DNA of 10,338 bases, from positions 1-10,338 of the IMG/VR virus record IMGVR_UViG_2534681772_000012. One strand, 5' to 3'. The translations under genes were made by a program, and so were the position numbers. Below the pieces are notes generated by a model. It saw only the letters and a program-made list of their open reading frames with translations, had not been told where the DNA came from and ran no database searches. Positions 1,862 to 10,338 of this stretch are shown here, in pieces (position 1 is the stretch's first letter; the number at the start of each line of letters is the position of its first letter). Origin of the DNA: a virus (taxonomy: Duplodnaviria; Heunggongvirae; Uroviricota; Caudoviricetes).

Positions 1862-2068
1862 ATGAGAAATCATACCATACACCCGCAAGGGCGGGACTCG
1901 CACAACCTGAATAAATACATCTGGCGTTTTATCGCCCTGAGTACGGCACAACCGCGCGTGATTACCATTGAGGCCACCAGCGAACAGGAAGCCCGTCAGC
2001 AATCACCGGCTGGCTGCGTGATGGTATTCGCCGCCCGTATTCGTCAGGGGGTGCACCATGTGCAATAA
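1862..2068 (+). CDS. Small protein, probably Icd-like (host cell division inhibitor Icd-like family of P4-type satellites)
   Basis: ATG 1862 with GAGG RBS; the track ORF uses an upstream TTG at 1772. Motif pattern YIWRF-ALS...EATSEQEAR...FAARIRQ matches my memory of Icd-like proteins. Stop overlaps the next start (ATGTGCAATAA). Confidence 0.5.
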   Translation: MRNHTIHPQGRDSHNLNKYIWRFIALSTAQPRVITIEATSEQEARQQSPAGCVMVFAARIRQGVHHVQ

Positions 2069-2525
2069 CACCCGTCCGGACGCAGCCGCCGAAGCAATCA
2101 AAACACTGATTGATGCGCTGATTGATATTTCTGTTATCGCGGACAGGGCGCATAAGCACGCTACCAGTGAAACAGAATATGCCGGGGCTTTCGTTCCTCA
2201 TTCGCTGGCGGTTATGCAACTTAGTGCGGATATGGCGCTGAATGAGGCCAAAGCCATCCTGATTGCTGATTGTGAAAATGGGGGGGGGGTTATGCGTGAT
2301 GATCGTTTTAATTCCCTGAAACAGGAATTTTCCGGCGTTCCTGATGATGCGGCTGATGCGCTTTCGTCAATGCCAGAGCTTATTAGAGCGGCTTTTTTCT
2401 TACTTTCCACGAGAGAATATAAATCAACGGGGCTTGATGTACTGAATATCGCCGCCGATTATGCGGAATATGTGGCAGAGGCGCGTTACAGAAGAAAATT
2501 TCCTGAGGATGTAAGCCATGCGTGA
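2058..2525 (+). CDS. Hypothetical protein (155 aa) containing an internal G10 homopolymer
   Basis: ATG 2058 preceded by AGGGGG RBS; translationally coupled to neighbours on both sides. No recognisable family. G10 run at 2280-2289 encodes GGG and is followed by an in-frame ATG at 2292. Confidence 0.55.
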   Translation: MCNNTRPDAAAEAIKTLIDALIDISVIADRAHKHATSETEYAGAFVPHSLAVMQLSADMALNEAKAILIADCENGGGVMRDDRFNSLKQEFSGVPDDAADALSSMPELIRAAFFLLSTREYKSTGLDVLNIAADYAEYVAEARYRRKFPEDVSHA

Positions 2526-2751
2526 TATTTACCACGAAACAATAGACCGCGCATTTCTTGCACTTTCTCACAGTGAAAACATGCTGGAAATATTGCGCAT
2601 ATGGCTTGAAACACTTGGCGACAATGAACGCGACAAACAAAAATCAAGAATTGCCACGGCATTAATAACGCTTCTTGAGCCTGTAATAATGGAACTGCAA
2701 GAAATAGATCTATTGCACGACAGATATAAAGAACAGCACACCGGAGAATAA
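2518..2751 (+). CDS. Hypothetical protein (77 aa)
   Basis: ATG 2518 overlaps the upstream stop by 8 nt; GAGGA RBS; protein-like composition; no recognisable family. Confidence 0.55.
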   Translation: MRDIYHETIDRAFLALSHSENMLEILRIWLETLGDNERDKQKSRIATALITLLEPVIMELQEIDLLHDRYKEQHTGE

Positions 2752-2756
2752 AAATA

Positions 2757-3056
2757 ATGAAACTTAAATATTCTGGCTTAACTGCCAGTGGCAACACTCA
2801 CCCTAAATTTACGCGCGGTGATATTTACCGCGACCAGTACGGCGGCACGGTAATGATTAAGGGCGTGGAAGAACGGCGCGTAATCTACCGCCGTGAAGGT
2901 TACGAATATGATTGCGTGATGCCTGTTTATCAGTTCCGGTGTGATTTTTCTCTGGTACAGACCGCGCCGCATAACGTGCCCACCAGCAACGCCAGGGCAC
3001 GGGCAAACATCCAGAAGCTGAAAACCATGATTAACGGATTCAGGGGCAAGAAATGA
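2757..3056 (+). CDS. Hypothetical protein (99 aa)
   Basis: ATG 2757 with GGAG RBS; stop overlaps the rep start (ATGA at 3053-3056); no recognisable family. Confidence 0.55.
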   Translation: MKLKYSGLTASGNTHPKFTRGDIYRDQYGGTVMIKGVEERRVIYRREGYEYDCVMPVYQFRCDFSLVQTAPHNVPTSNARARANIQKLKTMINGFRGKK

Positions 3057-4468
3057 AAAGCGCACCGAACTTAAAAAAACAGCCTTACGACAAAATGACC
3101 GAAGTCATTATTTTTGCGGGTAGTGATGCCTGGGCGCACGCGAAACAATGGCAGGAGCAGGACGGGCGACTTGCTGGCGACAATGTTCCGCCTGTATGGC
3201 TGGGAGACAGCCAGCTTGACGAACTGGCAGGCCTGAAAATTATCGACGATGGTCGCTATTGTGTCCGACTGTACAAGGCAGGCCACATCAAGCCGTCAAA
3301 TATTAATGCCATCGGGCAAAAGCTGGCGGCGGCAGGTGTACGGGATGCGAATTATTACCCTGAGGGAATGCACAGTCAGAAGCTGGAGAACTGGCACGAC
3401 TACCTGCAACGGATCCGCGAACAGGCAGAGCGCGGGGAAATACTTACTGACGAGCAATACAGCCAGCGAAAAACCACGCTACCAATGAGCATTGGATCTG
3501 CAGGGTACGACACACAGCTTGATTATGTCGTTAAGGGCGTGATTCCGGCTAATTCATTGTGCAGCACATACGGCGCGAGCGGTTCCTATAAATCGTTCCT
3601 CGCGTGTTCCTGGGCGTGTCATGTTGCCACGGGTCGCCACTGGGGAGGTCGCAGGGTGGCGCATGGTTCGGTGATGTATGTTGTCGGTGAAGGTGGCATT
3701 GGTGTCCCCCGCCGTATCAAGGCATGGGAAATCGTTAATGATGAACGGGTGAAAAATCTGTACCTGGTAAACCGCCCGATTTTTCCTGCAGCCCAGTTTG
3801 ATGTTGATGAAATGGTTATCGCATCCCGCCAGGTTGAACGGGAAACGGGTAAACCGGTACGCATGATTATTCTGGATACGCTGGCGCGTTGCTTTGGCGG
3901 TAATGATGAAAATGACGCGCGGGATATGGGGGCGTTTATCCGTGGATGTGACGAACTGAAACGACGCACAGGGGCCACGGTGCTGGTGGTTCACCATTCC
4001 GGCAAGGATGAAACAAAAGGGGCGCGTGGTTCCAGTGCATTTCGTGCATCTCTGGACGCTGAGTACCGGATCCGCCGCGAAGGCGCGGACAGTGAGGCCC
4101 TGGTTATCTCCTGCACCAAAATGAAGGACGCGGAGGAACTGAAAGAGGCTGCATATGATTTACGTGTGGTGGAGCTTTTTACCGACGCTGACAAGGAGTT
4201 AATCACGTCGCTGGTGGTTGTGGATAAGCCGCGCCCACCCGTTGAACTGGAGCGCATCGAGGAGGCCGGAAACAAGACGGAGAATCACGCCGCACTATGG
4301 GGCTGTATCCGGTCACGCACACAGCGCGGCGATAAATGCACTATCCCGTTGTTGCGCGATGATATGAAAAAGCTGGGGTATGAGATGAAAAACTTCCGGC
4401 GCTGGCTGTACAAGCTGGAAAGAGACGGCGTTATCGCTATTGACGGTGATGATGTGCGCCCACTGTAA
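3053..4468 (+). CDS. Replication initiator / RepA-like RecA-fold (AAA_25-type) ATPase, 471 aa; no primase domain recognised
   Basis: Walker A-like GASGSYKS and Walker B-like hydrophobic run ending in D (RMIILDTL) in the central region; RBS AGGGG; an iteron array follows the stop codon immediately, as in PICI/SaPI-type pri-rep/ori units. Confidence 0.8.
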   Translation: MKSAPNLKKQPYDKMTEVIIFAGSDAWAHAKQWQEQDGRLAGDNVPPVWLGDSQLDELAGLKIIDDGRYCVRLYKAGHIKPSNINAIGQKLAAAGVRDANYYPEGMHSQKLENWHDYLQRIREQAERGEILTDEQYSQRKTTLPMSIGSAGYDTQLDYVVKGVIPANSLCSTYGASGSYKSFLACSWACHVATGRHWGGRRVAHGSVMYVVGEGGIGVPRRIKAWEIVNDERVKNLYLVNRPIFPAAQFDVDEMVIASRQVERETGKPVRMIILDTLARCFGGNDENDARDMGAFIRGCDELKRRTGATVLVVHHSGKDETKGARGSSAFRASLDAEYRIRREGADSEALVISCTKMKDAEELKEAAYDLRVVELFTDADKELITSLVVVDKPRPPVELERIEEAGNKTENHAALWGCIRSRTQRGDKCTIPLLRDDMKKLGYEMKNFRRWLYKLERDGVIAIDGDDVRPL

Positions 4469-5551: not shown

Positions 5552-6598
5552 ATGAGTATGGTTGATTTATATTCGCCTACACAGCTTGTGCAGGTGGCTA
5601 ATGCTGAAGATGTGCAAAAAAAATTAAATGCGTTGTTTACCAGTTTGTTTTTCACTCGCTCGGTAATGTTTGAATCGAGAGACATTATTCTTGATACGAT
5701 CGACGATCCAAATATCCCGATCGCGGCGTTTTGCTCTCCTATGGTGGGCAGTAAAGTTTCACGAGATGAGGGATACGAATCAAAAACAATTCGCCCTGGC
5801 TATATGAAACCGAAAAGCAGCATTGATCCAAATAAGTTAGCTGTGCGCCCTGCTGGTGTATCACCTGAACAATACAATGCTTTTGGGGCGCGTAATATTA
5901 AAGTTAAACAGGCGATTGTAAATCAGGCTAAAGCTATACGTGCACGTATTGAATGGCTTGCTGTTCAGGCAATCACAACGGGGAAAAATATCATTGAGGG
6001 CGATGGTATTGAACGTTATGAACTGGACTGGAATATAAAACCACAAAATATTATCACGCAGTCTGGCGGTGCTGAGTGGTCAGGTAAGGATAAAGAAACT
6101 TTTGATCCAAATGATGATATTGAGAGCTACGCAGAATTTAGTGAGGGCGTCACTAATATCATCATTATGGGCGGTAATGTATGGAAGAAATACCGTTCAT
6201 TCAGAGCGATAAAAGAGGCTCTGGATACCCGCCGTGGTTCTAATTCCGAACTGGAAACGGCCCTTAAAGACCTTGGTGATTCGGTGAGTTTTAAAGGGTA
6301 TATGGGCGATGTTGCGATTGTTGTTTACAGCGGACGTTATACCGACGAGGACGGAACTGAAAAACATTTCCTTGATCCTGATTTGATGGTGCTTGGCAAT
6401 ACGGCTCTTCAGGGGATTGTCGCCTATGGCGGTATTCAGGATCCGGAGCTAACCCGAATGGGGCTGACTAAAGCCGAACTTGCACCGAAAAACTATATTG
6501 TGCCTGGTGATCCGGCTATTGAGTACGTACAAACGCACTCTGCACCACAGCCAATACCGGCCCGCATCAATCGTTTTGTTACCGTTCGCATTGGCTAA
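5552..6598 (+). CDS. Lambda gpE-like major capsid protein
   Basis: Translation from MSMVDLYSPTQL aligns along its length with my memory of lambda gpE (MSMYTTAQLL..., ITQSGG-EWS-DK-T-DP-DDIE-YA, TRRGSNSELETA-KDLG, GDVAIVVYSG-Y, MVLGNT, GDPA). Start 5552 by homology; ATG 5558 has better RBS spacing from AAGAGG. Stop TAA 6596-6598. Confidence 0.85.
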   Translation: MSMVDLYSPTQLVQVANAEDVQKKLNALFTSLFFTRSVMFESRDIILDTIDDPNIPIAAFCSPMVGSKVSRDEGYESKTIRPGYMKPKSSIDPNKLAVRPAGVSPEQYNAFGARNIKVKQAIVNQAKAIRARIEWLAVQAITTGKNIIEGDGIERYELDWNIKPQNIITQSGGAEWSGKDKETFDPNDDIESYAEFSEGVTNIIIMGGNVWKKYRSFRAIKEALDTRRGSNSELETALKDLGDSVSFKGYMGDVAIVVYSGRYTDEDGTEKHFLDPDLMVLGNTALQGIVAYGGIQDPELTRMGLTKAELAPKNYIVPGDPAIEYVQTHSAPQPIPARINRFVTVRIG

Positions 6599-6607
6599 GG
6601 GGGAGCA

Positions 6608-6850
6608 ATGGCTACTCATTACACTGAACTCATGTCTGGCACTGAAGCACTGGTTACTACGCTGGGGATATTTTCAGCCAATAAAGGGGTAATACCTGCG
6701 TTTACGCCACTGATGCAGGAAGATGCAACTGGTGCGCTAGTGGTATGGGATGGAACGAGCGCAGGCAAAGCGGTTTATGTTTCCGCTGTACAAATCGACA
6801 CTGAACCGCCCCGGGAATCCTGGAGACTAAACTCCCTGAGAAAGAGGTAA
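6608..6850 (+). pseudogene. Lambda gpD-like head decoration protein gene, 3'-truncated by IS629-like insertion
   Basis: RBS AGGGGGAG; TPLMQEDATGALVVWDGTSAGKAVYVSAV matches the lambda gpD region [29 protein letters not shown]. Homology ends at 6801, where the IS inverted repeat begins; the last ~16 codons of the ORF are IS-derived. Confidence 0.7.
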
Positions 6851-6855
6851 ACAGG

Positions 6856-7182
6856 ATGACTAAAAATACTCGTTTTTCCCCCGAAGTCCGTCAGAGGGCG
6901 ATTCGTATGGTTCTGGAAAGTCAGGGCGAATATGACTCACAGTGGGCGGCAATTTGTTCCATTGCCCCAAAGATTGACTGTACACCGGAGACTCTGCGTG
7001 TCTGGGTACGCCAGCATGAGCGGGATACCGGAGGCGGTGATGGCGGGCTCACCACCGCTGAACGTCAGCGTCTGAAAGAGCTGGAACGTGAAAATCGTGA
7101 ACTGCGCCGCAGTAACGATATCCTTCGCCAGGCTTCCGCTTATTTTGCGAAGGCGGAGTTCGACCGCCTCTGGAAAAAGTGA
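6856..7182 (+). CDS. IS3-family transposase OrfA (HTH/leucine-zipper part), IS629-like
   Basis: 108 aa, [30 protein letters not shown]...[36 protein letters not shown]; ends at the frameshift window. Confidence 0.9.
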
Positions 7183-8069
7183 TGCCACTGCTGGATAAGC
7201 TGCGTAAGCTGTACGGGGTCGGACCGGTATGCAGTGAACTACATATTGCCCCGTCAACGTATTACCACTGTCAGCAACAGCGACATCATCCTGATAAACG
7301 CAGTGCCCGTGCGCAGCGCGATGACTGGCTGAAGAAAGAGATACTGCGCGTATACGATGGGAATCATCAGGTATACGGTGTGCGTAAAGTCTGGCGTCAG
7401 TTGTTACGGGAAGGAATCAGGGTAGCCAGATGTACAGTGGCGCGCCTCATGGCGGTTATGGGACTTGCCGGTGTTCTCCGGGGTAAAAAGGTCCGCACTA
7501 CCGTCAGCCGGAAAGCCGTTGCCGCAGGCGACCGCGTAAACCGTCAGTTTGTGGCAGAACGTCCTGACCAGTTGTGGGTGGCTGATTTTACTTACGTCAG
7601 CACATGGCAGGGGGTCGTCTATGTGGCGTTCATCATTGATGTGTTTGCCGGATACATCGTGGGGTGGCGGGTCTCATCGTCTATGGAAACGACATTCGTG
7701 CTGGATGCTCTGGAGCAGGCGTTATGGGCCCGTCGACCGTCCGGCACAGTCCATCACAGTGATAAAGGTTCTCAGTATGTATCGCTGGCCTACACACAGC
7801 GGCTTAAGGAAGCCGGATTACTGGCATCAACAGGAAGTACTGGTGACTCGTATGACAACGCGATGGCGGAGAGCATCAATGGCCTTTACAAAGCGGAGGT
7901 AATACACCGTAAGAGCTGGAAAAACCGGACAGAAGTGGAACTGGCCACACTCACGTGGGTGGACTGGTATAACAATCGACGATTGCTGGAAAGGCTGGGC
8001 CATATCCCACCGGCAGAAGCAGAAAAAGCTTATTATGCTTCCATCGGAAACGATGATCTGGCAGCCTGA
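7179..8069 (+). CDS. IS3-family transposase OrfB (DDE catalytic domain), IS629-like; expressed as OrfAB fusion by -1 frameshift
   Basis: 296 aa with DDE-type motifs ([31 protein letters not shown]); overlaps orfA in the -1 frame. Confidence 0.9.
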
Positions 8070-8123
8070 GTTCACAGATAAAACACTCTCCAGGAAACCC
8101 GGGGCGGTTCACAAAGTGTTTTT

Positions 8124-9698
8124 TCATCGCACACCGCCTTTTTCCTGATGAAAGCGGCAACGAGCAATCACGGATTGAATTTCAAATTGTGTGGTTTCAT
8201 GGATTGAAATAAGTGGATTGCGGGCGTTACCAACACTGTCTGAAATGGAAATCAATTCATCGACTTCTTTAACTACACTCTCCAGCACCGCCTGATGGTC
8301 ACCATCAGTAAAGGGGCGGAAATACAGGCAACCGTAGCAGCAGCGTACTTCACTGAATGGGCATTTGCCATCATCTCTGGAGCAACCGCCAATCCCATCA
8401 TGCAACTCATCACCGATTATGCCGACCACGCGCTGGTCTTGCCATTTCGTTGAAGAGGTCAGTTCACCAGTCAACATCATAGCCACCATGTTTTGCCATA
8501 CCGGATTGATACCCAATGCTTTGGCTCGAATCAGTGCCAGTGCAGGCGTCGCCAGAATGTAATACTTGGCAACAGTAAGGGAGCTATGTCCCAGAATATG
8601 CGCAATTTCCTCGGCGCTGACCCCTTGCATAGCCAGTGAATGCCCCACGTTGTGGCGCAAGTCGGTCGGGGTAATGGTTGGCAAAGCCGCTTCGCCACGC
8701 TTTACGGCTGCCTGATAATCTGGCGGACTGAAACAGAGGAAGGCCTTGTTAATCGCTCTGGACACATTAAACGGTGCAGAGTTACTAAATTCAAATAGCT
8801 TGCCATCAGGTTTTAGTTGCGCTCGCTCGATATAGTGCCTAATCAACGCGCCGATTTCAGCTGGAATCGCCAAAAACAGACGTTCAGTCGTTACGTGCCG
8901 CTGTTTGGCGTAAGGAAGGAGTAAGCTATATCGTATTAATCCGGTTTCGGAGTTTCGGGTATCAATACGTAAATCTTTTACCGCCAGCTTGGCCAGTTGT
9001 ACCGGTCGGGCACCGGTGACATACGTCAGTCCCAGAATTACTGCATCTCGCATGGTGTTCAGACTGTAGTTTTCGCCATACCGAATCGCCACAGCCATTT
9101 CAAACAAGCCTTTACTGATCATGTTTTTTTCGAGGGGATCCAGAACATGATCAATTTCCTGATAGATTCCCCAGTCATGGGAGTGCGGGCGAGGGATGAA
9201 TTCGAGGTCTTCATAATCTTCGAGGGTAAAACCAGGGAATGCTTCGGTACAGAGGATTTTTAGGCCGAAAATGATAAAGTAGAAATATTGAGGTTTAATT
9301 TCCTGAGTTTCGAGGTAATCTTTCAACACCGTAAAAGTGAAAGCAGATTTGCTTATGCAATGATCAGTTGCCAAAGACCACGCATGGAGTACCCCAGGAA
9401 CCTGAGCTGGACACTTGGCAGATGCATAATGGAAGCAAATATATTTGATTAATTGGTTGCTGATTTTATCCTGACGAAAGTGGGCATAGCAGCGGCTTCC
9501 TGAATAATCGAATACCCAACTGTCACTTGTTGAGCTGATATATTTGTCATCAAAATGATCTGCCGATTTAAGATAAATACTAACTGGTATATTAACCTTT
9601 AAAATACTCTCAACAAATACAGGTGTGTAAATGTTGCTGTTCGACGCATTTAACTGTTTATTGATTCGACTCATATGCACTCCATTCATCGCATACAT
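8124..9698 (-). CDS. Tyrosine recombinase / phage-integrase-family protein, large (516-524 aa) with Cys-rich C-terminal region
   Basis: Catalytic-motif pattern in the central part: GARPVQLAKL (Arg box), DLRHNVGHSLAM (H-x-x-R), LGHSSLTVAKYYI (His/Tyr nucleophile box). The best RBS (GGAG) precedes the third in-frame ATG at 9674, so the true start may be 9674. Stop is 12 bp from the IS629 end. Confidence 0.75.
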   Translation of the reverse strand: MYAMNGVHMSRINKQLNASNSNIYTPVFVESILKVNIPVSIYLKSADHFDDKYISSTSDSWVFDYSGSRCYAHFRQDKISNQLIKYICFHYASAKCPAQVPGVLHAWSLATDHCISKSAFTFTVLKDYLETQEIKPQYFYFIIFGLKILCTEAFPGFTLEDYEDLEFIPRPHSHDWGIYQEIDHVLDPLEKNMISKGLFEMAVAIRYGENYSLNTMRDAVILGLTYVTGARPVQLAKLAVKDLRIDTRNSETGLIRYSLLLPYAKQRHVTTERLFLAIPAEIGALIRHYIERAQLKPDGKLFEFSNSAPFNVSRAINKAFLCFSPPDYQAAVKRGEAALPTITPTDLRHNVGHSLAMQGVSAEEIAHILGHSSLTVAKYYILATPALALIRAKALGINPVWQNMVAMMLTGELTSSTKWQDQRVVGIIGDELHDGIGGCSRDDGKCPFSEVRCCYGCLYFRPFTDGDHQAVLESVVKEVDELISISDSVGNARNPLISIHETTQFEIQSVIARCRFHQEKGGVR

Positions 9699-10085
9699 GG
9701 GAAAAGGTTGATTTCAGGGCTTCGTTATCAATCACAATTCGCTGAAGATTGGCCGTATTAGCCTGCTGAGATAGAAATCTTTTAGCGTAAAGATCAGGCA
9801 TATGGCTATTGTGACTCCAACCGCCAAGTAGCCGTAATTCATCCTTGGCTTCATCCATCAATCCAACGATAGAAAAGTCTATGGCTGCCAAGTGTGAGTT
9901 GGCCTTAATTTTTTGAAGTTTATCACGATAAATACGTTGAAGTGTTAAATAAGCCCAAGTATGCCGCGTTATATGAGGCGAGATGCTTTCAATGGCATCA
10001 TAATATTCATCTTTTTTATATTCAGGATACTGCACACTCATAATGTCATCAATACGGGTAAAGATATCATAGACTGCATGGTATG
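9658..10085 (-). pseudogene. C-terminal catalytic fragment of a second tyrosine recombinase, 5'-truncated by IS2
   Basis: PHITRHTWAYLTL (H-x-x-R box) and LLGGWSHNSHMPDLYAKRF (His...Tyr box) present; N-terminal domains absent. The first ~9 codons of track ORF 9658..10113 (MSGDSGGQS) are encoded by the IS2 terminal repeat. Its 3' end overlaps the start of the downstream recombinase. Confidence 0.65.
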
Positions 10086-10338
10086 TAGACTGGCCCCCTG
10101 AATCTCCAGACAACCAATATCACTTAAATAAGTGATAGTCTTAATACTAGTTTTTAGACTAGTCATTGGAGAGCAGATGATTGATGTCTTAGGACCGGAG
10201 AAACGCAGACGGCGTACTACACAGGAAAAGATCGCTATTGTTCAGCAGAGTTTTGAACCGGGAATGACGGTCTCCCTTGTTGCCCGGCAACACGGTGTGG
10301 CAGCCAGCCAGTTATTTCTCTGGCGCAAGCAATACCAG
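10086..10338 (+). mobile_element. IS2 (IS3 family) left end, partial; continues beyond the window
   Basis: TAGACTGGCCCCCTGAATCTCCAGACAACCAATATCACTTAAATAAGTGATAGTC... matches my memory of the IS2 terminal repeat and leader; followed by the IS2 orfA start. Confidence 0.85.
10177..10338 (+). CDS. insC: IS2 transposase OrfA (InsC-like), 5' partial at window edge
   Basis: ATG 10177; translation [54 protein letters not shown]... matches IS2 OrfA as I recall it; ORF open to the window end. Confidence 0.8.

Follow-up and report, generated by a model that had tools for sequence, protein, structure and literature searches.

A G-run of variable length at the junction of two predicted small genes in an EcCICFT073-like satellite of Escherichia coli

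Background

Does a run of ten G residues inside a coding sequence work as a genetic switch, or does its variation have a plainer origin? The question is raised by a DNA stretch of 10,338 nucleotides (nt) assigned to Caudoviricetes (IMG/VR record IMGVR_UViG_2534681772_000012, hereafter the window), in which a G10 run at 2280-2289 is followed by TT and by ATG 2292-2294. Both the run and the ATG are in frame with ATG 2058 (offsets of 222 and 234, both divisible by 3). In the resulting open reading frame (ORF) of 155 amino acids (aa), at 2058..2525, the uninterrupted run therefore encodes Gly75-Gly76-Gly77, ahead of Val78 (GTT) and Met79 (ATG). No other G or C run in the window reaches 7 bases, and shuffles of the window preserving dinucleotides are expected to hold 0.38 G runs of at least 8 each. 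An earlier note on this DNA had described the same arrangement, which was confirmed in full from the letters, and had proposed that changes in tract length would end an N-terminal product and could leave a 77-aa product from ATG 2292, with the G-run as its Shine-Dalgarno (SD) sequence.

The answer reached here, held with good though not full confidence, is that the G-run is a hot spot of slipped-strand mispairing where A and B, two distinct and translationally coupled genes, overlap in the early operon, close to the replication gene, of a phage-inducible chromosomal island (PICI) of EcCICFT073 type, and that its variation is near-neutral rather than the work of a dedicated switch.

Results

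The region was matched by megablast in 1,766 of 5,426 complete E. coli genomes, and the A-B junction was found at a probe coverage of at least 80% in 660-728 of them (about 12-13%). At least one Shigella flexneri locus was confirmed by contig scan among the matches listed, and megablast gave no match to the region of A, B and the following gene C in 50,697 phage records. RefSeq annotation of the region alternated, some genomes having a single 154-aa gene and others a pair of about 80 and 77 aa, and the sole sequence difference behind the two annotations was the number of G's. Many orthologues were thus already split in RefSeq, with the upstream product ended and the 77-aa product starting at the position of ATG 2292, as the earlier note had anticipated for a change in length.

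The tract was located between constant flanks (GATTGTGAAAAT[Gn]TTATGCGTGATG) and ranged from G6 to G11 in related loci, so that the expected variation between genomes was found. Translation and RefSeq annotation gave three frame states, and not the two that had been foreseen. In the split state (n = 8 or 11), the G8 allele reads GGG GGG GGT, the three Gly codons that come last in A, then TAT GCG TGA, with the ATG of B lying inside ATGCGTGA. Native A is about 79 aa long and ends ...CENGGGYA*; in G8 and G11 genomes the A portion (2058..2291, plus strand, phrog_5146) is continued to ...CENGGG(G)YA*, stopping at TGA 2297..2299 (plus strand), a codon present in all 93 distinct contexts, which leaves an 8-nt overlap with B. 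Gene B (2292..2525, plus strand, 77 aa, phrog_24341) is an independent gene starting at ATG 2292, and is annotated as WP_001204078.1 in split genomes. In the fused state (n = 7 or 10), A is joined to B through GlyGly(Gly)Val; the 155-aa ORF 2058..2525 (plus strand) of the window belongs to this class, along with fused homologues of 154 or 155 aa (PHROG 2512). In the extended state (n = 6 or 9), A gains a 9-residue out-of-frame tail, LCVMIVLIP, and stops at TGA 2317..2319 (plus strand), 25 nt beyond the start codon of B, with a 28-nt overlap that is annotated as such in some genomes and as 'frameshifted' by the Prokaryotic Genome Annotation Pipeline (PGAP) in others.

Each state was represented by annotated genomes. 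Strain 2014C-3061 (locus L005, G6) was annotated with two genes overlapping by 28 nt, as were STEC2018-553 (L006) and Ec-042-T5-MAC (L010), both G9, and two further G9 genomes, JNEC-KY171 (L007) and O111:H8 7-15 45A (L009), were called 'frameshifted'. MBT-5 (L003, G7) was annotated as fused, the state of the G10 window. KSC1031, O111:H21 15A and CFT073 (all G8) and TW10590 (G11) were annotated as split. Two IMG/VR contigs of one isolate genome carried G8 (L016) and G7 (L022), and G8 (L062) and G7 (L092) copies stood together on a single 14-kb contig; one strain can thus hold two related satellites in different frame states.

A and B were each found with other partners. In locus L013, A ends CENGGGDYAK* on an interrupted run (GGCGGGGGC) and a different gene lies downstream, and in L011 and L012 the place ahead of B is taken by A2, an unrelated gene of 121 aa, the junction being CAGGGGGGTAAACATGCGTGA. 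When 1.84 billion representatives at 50% identity were searched exhaustively with phmmer, 53 proteins matched the 155-aa query. The match was restricted to residues 1-78 in 26 of them (A-only representatives), and another 13 (B-only representatives) measured 47-78 aa, with several fragments among them, and began in the alignment at query position 79 or 80. Distant homologues were therefore separate, with the boundary exactly at V78|M79. In PHROGs, likewise, A belongs to family 5146, B to 24341 and the fusion to 2512. Variants in which the run is interrupted by a synonymous T (GGGGGTGG, GGGGGGGGTGG) were all in the split frame, and the ATGCGTGA overlap recurred at the B/C junction (2518), the same coupling motif being used at the A2/B junction. 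These comparisons show A and B to be separate genes with a native split form, and the 155-aa ORF of the window to be a fusion allele. The order assumed at first, a 155-aa base state broken by slippage, is thereby reversed.

The G-run showed a computed duplex of -11.1 kcal/mol with the anti-SD at the 3' end of 16S rRNA, among the strongest 1% of the 20-mers of the window (first percentile, -10.2 kcal/mol). Other gene starts of the window ranged from -5.7 to -11.1 kcal/mol; that of gene A has a G5 run (-10.7 kcal/mol), and G5 SDs are common in the operon. The run at 2280..2289 (plus strand) thus probably doubles as the SD of B, in agreement with the earlier note, while encoding the last Gly codons of A, and this double constraint would explain why a slippage-prone tract stays G-rich. 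In G8 and G11 genomes, two independent genes on the same strand overlap by stop and start, and the upstream one contains the predicted ribosome-binding site for the next. From an icd-like gene upstream to the RepA gene downstream, every gene overlaps the next or lies at most 5 nt from it, the layout of a translationally coupled chain. Coupled overlapping pairs of the ATGnnTGA or ATGA type (PMC12548453, PMC10666635) share with A and B the common strand, the short stop/start overlap (8 nt here), the SD inside the upstream coding sequence and the chain of genes. The difference is that the SD is here a long homopolymer also coding the C-terminal glycines of the upstream product, which makes the coupling geometry mutationally unstable.

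Two other homopolymers were observed around gene B. A second variable G-run, CAG[Gn]TAAACATGCGTGA, lies at the A2-B junction (L011, about 890-908; L012, L167, L168, L171). Among its 13 copies, 10 were in the native frame (nine G6 and one synonymous G7 variant), and G7, G8 and G10 occurred once each; G6 gives the native reading, G7 and G10 an early TAA stop, and G8 an A2-B fusion (VIQGGVNMRDD). A variable G-run thus appears to go with the ribosome-binding site of B in two unrelated contexts. Within B, a T6 run (window 2393-2398) is T5 in CFSAN061761, where PGAP marks B as 'frameshifted' (L011, 901-1121), a second, independent homopolymer frameshift of this short gene.

Tract lengths were collected by a gapped-pattern scan of IMG/VR (84 loci), an unbiased scan for gene B (80) and a metagenome scan (53 contigs). 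After removal of duplicate local contexts, 137 junctions were pooled from isolate-derived and metagenome sequences. The most frequent length was G8 (60 junctions; 33 isolate-derived and 27 from metagenomes), followed by G9 (33; 21 and 12) and G7 (27; 17 and 10), with few tracts of G10 (5; 4 and 1), G11 (3; 3 and 0) and G6 (1; 1 and 0) and eight interrupted ones (5 and 3). The 129 uninterrupted tracts were split in 49%, fused in 25% and extended in 26% of cases. Pooled lengths were unimodal at G8 and without a period of three, G10 being at least as frequent as G11 and G7 about as frequent as G9. Length and not frame therefore seems to shape the distribution, which suggests weak selection on frame.

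The 90 loci with 300-nt flanks on each side fell into 75 haplotypes, and four genomes with identical 600-nt flanks carried G8, G9, G10 and G11, respectively. When Fitch parsimony was applied to a neighbour-joining tree built from the flanks, it counted 40 length changes over 90 tips, against a mean of 44 with shuffled lengths, so that tract length is near saturation relative to point substitutions. Across 6,801 bases the window matched TW10590 except for a single G in the tract, and KSC1031 differed from the window by 6 single-nucleotide polymorphisms and two G's over the same 6.8 kb. Taking one length change for every zero to six substitutions across 6.8 kb, the tract would change, as a rough estimate, about 10^3 to 10^4 times faster than the per-site substitution rate, a rate that is probably high for E. 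coli, yet below those of classical phase variation.

About 80 nt round the tract (about -40 to +40; window ~2240-2330) were near invariant across the 93 contexts (heterozygosity 0-0.1), a conservation partly forced by the search pattern, and the bodies of A and B were clearly mosaic (0.2-0.5). In some genomes BLAST homology begins exactly at the ATG of B or stops just past the tract. The junction may thus be a recombination anchor for module shuffling.

Stability within clones was assessed in the complete E. coli genomes with probes holding 44 nt of O157-type flank on each side. Rows of 100% identity and full coverage were counted, with a subtraction for G7, whose count is approximate; the band of at least 99% was set aside, since it mixed about 113 partial matches of the right flank with one-mismatch matches of the 96-nt probe. 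Some 230 genomes on the O157-type haplotype (O157:H7 and some O145) carried exactly G7. Exactly G8 was found in 17 genomes on O157-type flanks, including seven named O55:H7 strains, G6 in 4 (3 of them O145) and G9 in at least 2; no listed G6 or G8 genome was labelled O157:H7. On identical 88-nt flanks, the seven named strains listed for O55:H7, the sister lineage of O157:H7, thus had G8 (split), O157:H7 had G7 (fused) and O145 had G7 or G6. Lengths were also constant clone by clone: G7 in 14 of 14 sampled rows of O157:H7, G8 in 5 of 5 rows of the CFT073 group, and G9 in O111. The tract differs between close lineages, yet G7 is fixed inside a large, heavily sampled clone. This points to change on an evolutionary scale more than to quick switching inside a clone, for G7 at any rate; the longer tracts, G8 to G11, differed between near-identical elements.

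Genes A, B, C and A2 had no match in Pfam, NCBIfam, PADLOC or the sequences of the PDB, and their PHROGs matches were all to families of unknown function. AlphaFold2 modelled the fusion from a 28-sequence alignment as all-helical, at a mean predicted local distance difference test score (pLDDT) of 50 and a predicted template modelling score of 0.44; A was a two-helix, hairpin-like fold (pLDDT ~60-67) and B scored below 50. No paper on the tract, on either gene A or gene B, or on PICI homopolymers that vary was found in the literature searched.

The left two-thirds of the window appear, from their gene content, to be an EcCICFT073-type PICI. Island genes were assigned by Pfam, NCBIfam and PHROGs, together with RefSeq annotation transferred from near-identical loci. 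The 3' end of an integrase gene (1-43) is followed by an AlpA-type regulator (411-599) and a YlcI/YnfO gene on the minus strand (1359-1664). The coupled chain begins on the plus strand with the Icd-like gene (1862..2068, coordinates from L001; NF033153), which overlaps the start of A by 11 nt. After A and B come gene C (2518..2751, 77 aa, phrog_2196), whose start overlaps the stop of B through ATGCGTGA, a DUF4222 gene 5 nt past C (2757..3056) and, with an ATGA overlap, the RepA-family helicase (AAA_25; 3053..4468), a replication gene that closes the chain; all three are on the plus strand. Downstream of RepA lie a small ORF and then SSB, and further on the major capsid protein (ending at 6598) and a head-decoration gene starting at 6608, which measures 342 nt in the intact island of TW10590.

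The whole island of TW10590 and KSC1031 is about 10 kb long and lies between abgR and smrA, with the genes int, an AlpA-type helix-turn-helix (HTH) gene, icd-like, RepA helicase, SSB, major capsid and head decoration, and the small terminase subunit at its end; integrase, AlpA, replication and packaging or capsid genes at a fixed site, the gene set of a PICI, are thus all present in both strains. The same set and size characterize EcCICFT073-type PICIs, with major-capsid-like, head-decoration-like and small-terminase-like genes, and CFT073 itself has the A-B pair with G8. AlpA acts as these islands' master regulator (PMC11773190). What distinguishes the window is a broken copy, and the tract and genes A and B are not described for such PICIs in the literature searched. 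An IS3-family insertion sequence (IS) of 1,310 bp (6802-8111; terminal inverted repeats 6802-6826 and 8087-8111, 25 nt, 92% complementary; OrfA 6856-7182, OrfB 7179-8069) splits the head-decoration gene, and homology to the intact island stops exactly at 6801. The HTH gene and the small terminase of the island are absent from the window. Given the interrupted head-decoration gene and the absence of the remaining island genes from the window, this satellite copy is probably defective.

Two other parts of the window deserve mention. A 396-aa ORF at 652-1842 overlaps the opposite-strand YlcI/YnfO gene (1359-1664); only its residues ~50-85 weakly resemble anti-repressor/BRO-N proteins, and the annotation of related genomes shows a truncated BRO-N pseudogene there. 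It is probably not a gene. Beyond the IS, a minus-strand gene (8124-9698) encodes a 524-aa tyrosine recombinase with a Phage_integrase domain and weak matches to integrase_1 and GmtY-type models, and is overlapped by a 151-aa ORF (9658-10113, minus strand). Neither is related to the satellite, and both may be part of another mobile element placed beside it by the IS.

Discussion

Replication slippage is probably the mechanism behind the variation. Slippage on the homopolymer would add or remove G's and so shift the frame of A relative to that of B. The strong ribosome-binding site of B would be kept in every state, so that B can probably be made throughout, while the C-terminus of A would change with tract length, and the A:B ratio probably with it; in the fused state the Gly-rich joint might, speculatively, act as a flexible linker. 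The frame states are probably largely tolerated, since about half of the natural copies lie outside the native frame and fusions occur on many allelic backgrounds.

Several points weigh against a tolerated hot spot of this kind. Tolerance of the fusion is judged here from population frequencies only. Some length calls, chiefly those of G9 and above in long-read assemblies, could be consensus errors, as could the single base by which the window departs from TW10590. Raw counts are inflated by clones that were oversampled (O157:H7, O26), an effect which the removal of duplicate contexts lessens and does not fully remove. The AlphaFold2 model of the fusion is too poor to show whether A and B pack together.

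The alternative that survives best, though we consider it unlikely, is that selection keeps the G-run as a contingency locus or tuning knob, acting on the A:B ratio and, through the chain, on the replication module or on interference with the helper. The run is uninterrupted in about 94% of the 137 junctions, across at least 75 flank haplotypes. All three frame states are common, the tract sits in the conserved island of about 80 nt between mosaic gene bodies, the unrelated gene A2 also has a variable G-run before B, and the tight spacing from the icd-like gene to RepA would offer a route to replication. However, the roughly 230 O157-type genomes at G7, and the lack of an O157:H7 label on any listed G6 or G8 genome, give no sign of switching within a clone. 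Moreover, the lengths fit a mutational equilibrium near G8 with no frame periodicity, and Gly codons together with a G-rich SD can account for the persistence of the run.

In some species with contingency loci, tract changes fuse or split neighbouring ORFs, and homopolymer variation of such a kind is unusual in E. coli. The A-B tract resembles the contingency loci of Neisseria, Haemophilus, Campylobacter, Helicobacter and Bordetella (PMC5084427, PMC1891110, PMC2193922) in its coding poly-G, in differences of single bases between strains, in the frame shifts that follow, and in the slipped-strand mispairing presumed for both. It differs in lying in an E. coli satellite and not in a gene for a surface structure or restriction-modification, in that B is predicted to be producible in all three frames, and in that large clones are fixed for G7. 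The name of phase-variable switch is therefore unproven for this tract, as is any adaptive role. The fullest form of the proposal, a selected contingency locus that would be the first in E. coli PICIs and whose split, fused and extended states tune A:B stoichiometry and coupling to the helicase, is a shade less probable again. If it were true, a satellite lineage would maintain several replication or helper-interference phenotypes side by side, hedging against differing helper phages, and RNA-level slippage on the longer tracts might add heterogeneity within the cell.

Long G runs are error-prone on most sequencing platforms, and the variation in length, or at least the G10 of the window, might accordingly be a homopolymer miscall on a tract of fixed true length. 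The single G separating the window from TW10590 over 6.8 kb is what a consensus error would look like, and no complete E. coli genome of the collection has G10 on the flanks of the window. This reading is very unlikely. Lengths were reproducible in clones sequenced by different laboratories (O157:H7, the CFT073 group, O111, O55:H7), and the same length recurring within clones argues against random sequencing error as its source. Older finished references also differ (CFT073 with G8, O26:H11 11368 with G7 as judged by hit length), and Illumina-era draft isolates and metagenome assemblies share the G7-G9 spread. G10 itself was found elsewhere, in three IMG/VR loci (L015, L075, L096) and one metagenome contig, and in many clusters of 155-aa fused proteins on different alleles and protein backgrounds. 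The window's own count of exactly ten is not vouched for by the reproducibility within clones.

The +1 frameshift site of prfB has an internal SD-like G-run a few bases before UGA. The sequence GGGGGG-UUAU-GCG-UGA at the end of A is loosely like this site (AGGGGG-UAU-CUU-UGA), and the frame of B is +1 relative to the native frame of A. One genotype might thus yield both the fusion and the separate products, by ribosomal frameshifting or by slippage of RNA polymerase, a process with a precedent in the Enterobacteriaceae: in Citrobacter tssM, according to PMC4256274, transcriptional slippage on poly-A gives two length variants from a split gene. The number of G's in the DNA would then do no more than shift the ratio of the products. 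Such recoding is nevertheless slightly less credible than a miscall. The GCG before the stop should be unable to re-pair at +1 (CGU), unlike the CUU or UUU of prfB, and the prfB-like frameshift was rejected on this ground, the likeness being taken as a coincidence. Local RNA structure round the tract was no better than that of shuffles (z = 0.46). Tract length is not conserved, unlike that of programmed sites, with lengths from G6 to G11 in place of a fixed slippery sequence and a fusion in about 25% of junctions in place of a conserved trans-frame product. Of the papers on RNA-polymerase slippage in E. coli, PMC6260861 concerns A/T runs only and PMC1088944 makes no mention of G/C runs. An AATTCC...GGAATT palindrome 20 nt downstream was considered as a stimulator of -1 frameshifting and discarded as too far from the tract. 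Recoding systems such as tssM of Citrobacter rodentium (PMC4256274), OrfA-OrfB of the IS3 family and prfB also have a homopolymer, or an SD with a stop, at the boundary of two frames, and can give short and fused products. At the A-B junction, by comparison, the products are tied to a heritable DNA length, and neither a conserved slippery heptamer nor a re-pairing codon or stimulatory structure was found.

That the 154/155-aa protein is an ancestral single gene and the split forms its pseudogenes is the least probable reading and is largely refuted: PGAP calls some G9 copies 'frameshifted' and databases contain many fused forms, which have a PHROG family to themselves and dominate oversampled Shiga toxin-producing E. 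coli clones, but A and B occur with other partners, their distant homologues separate at V78|M79, the ATGCGTGA motif is shared with the B/C and A2/B junctions, isolates and metagenomes freed of duplicates most often have G8, and the T-interrupted 'locked' variants are in the split frame.

Conclusions

The G-run probably belongs to a known kind of slipped-strand hot spot. Its location is unusual: it sits at a coupling junction of an E. coli satellite and gives three product states. A first consequence concerns annotation. Pipelines disagree on the junction, some calling a single gene, some a pair and some a 'frameshifted' pseudogene, and in PHROGs the fusion has a separate family; this noise is resolved once the junction is seen to carry a hypervariable G-run between two genes. 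The tract is also a possible, fast-evolving lineage marker, separating O55:H7 from O157:H7 and subgroups within O145. For the biology of these satellites, it offers a testable case of homopolymer-driven variation in E. coli, on an element with uncharacterised small genes in its early region. Should the three states not differ in satellite replication or helper interference, the junction would stand as a clear example of a tolerated mutational hot spot arising where Gly codons overlap a G-rich ribosome-binding site. If they do differ, they would add a new layer to the dynamics between satellites and their helper phages.

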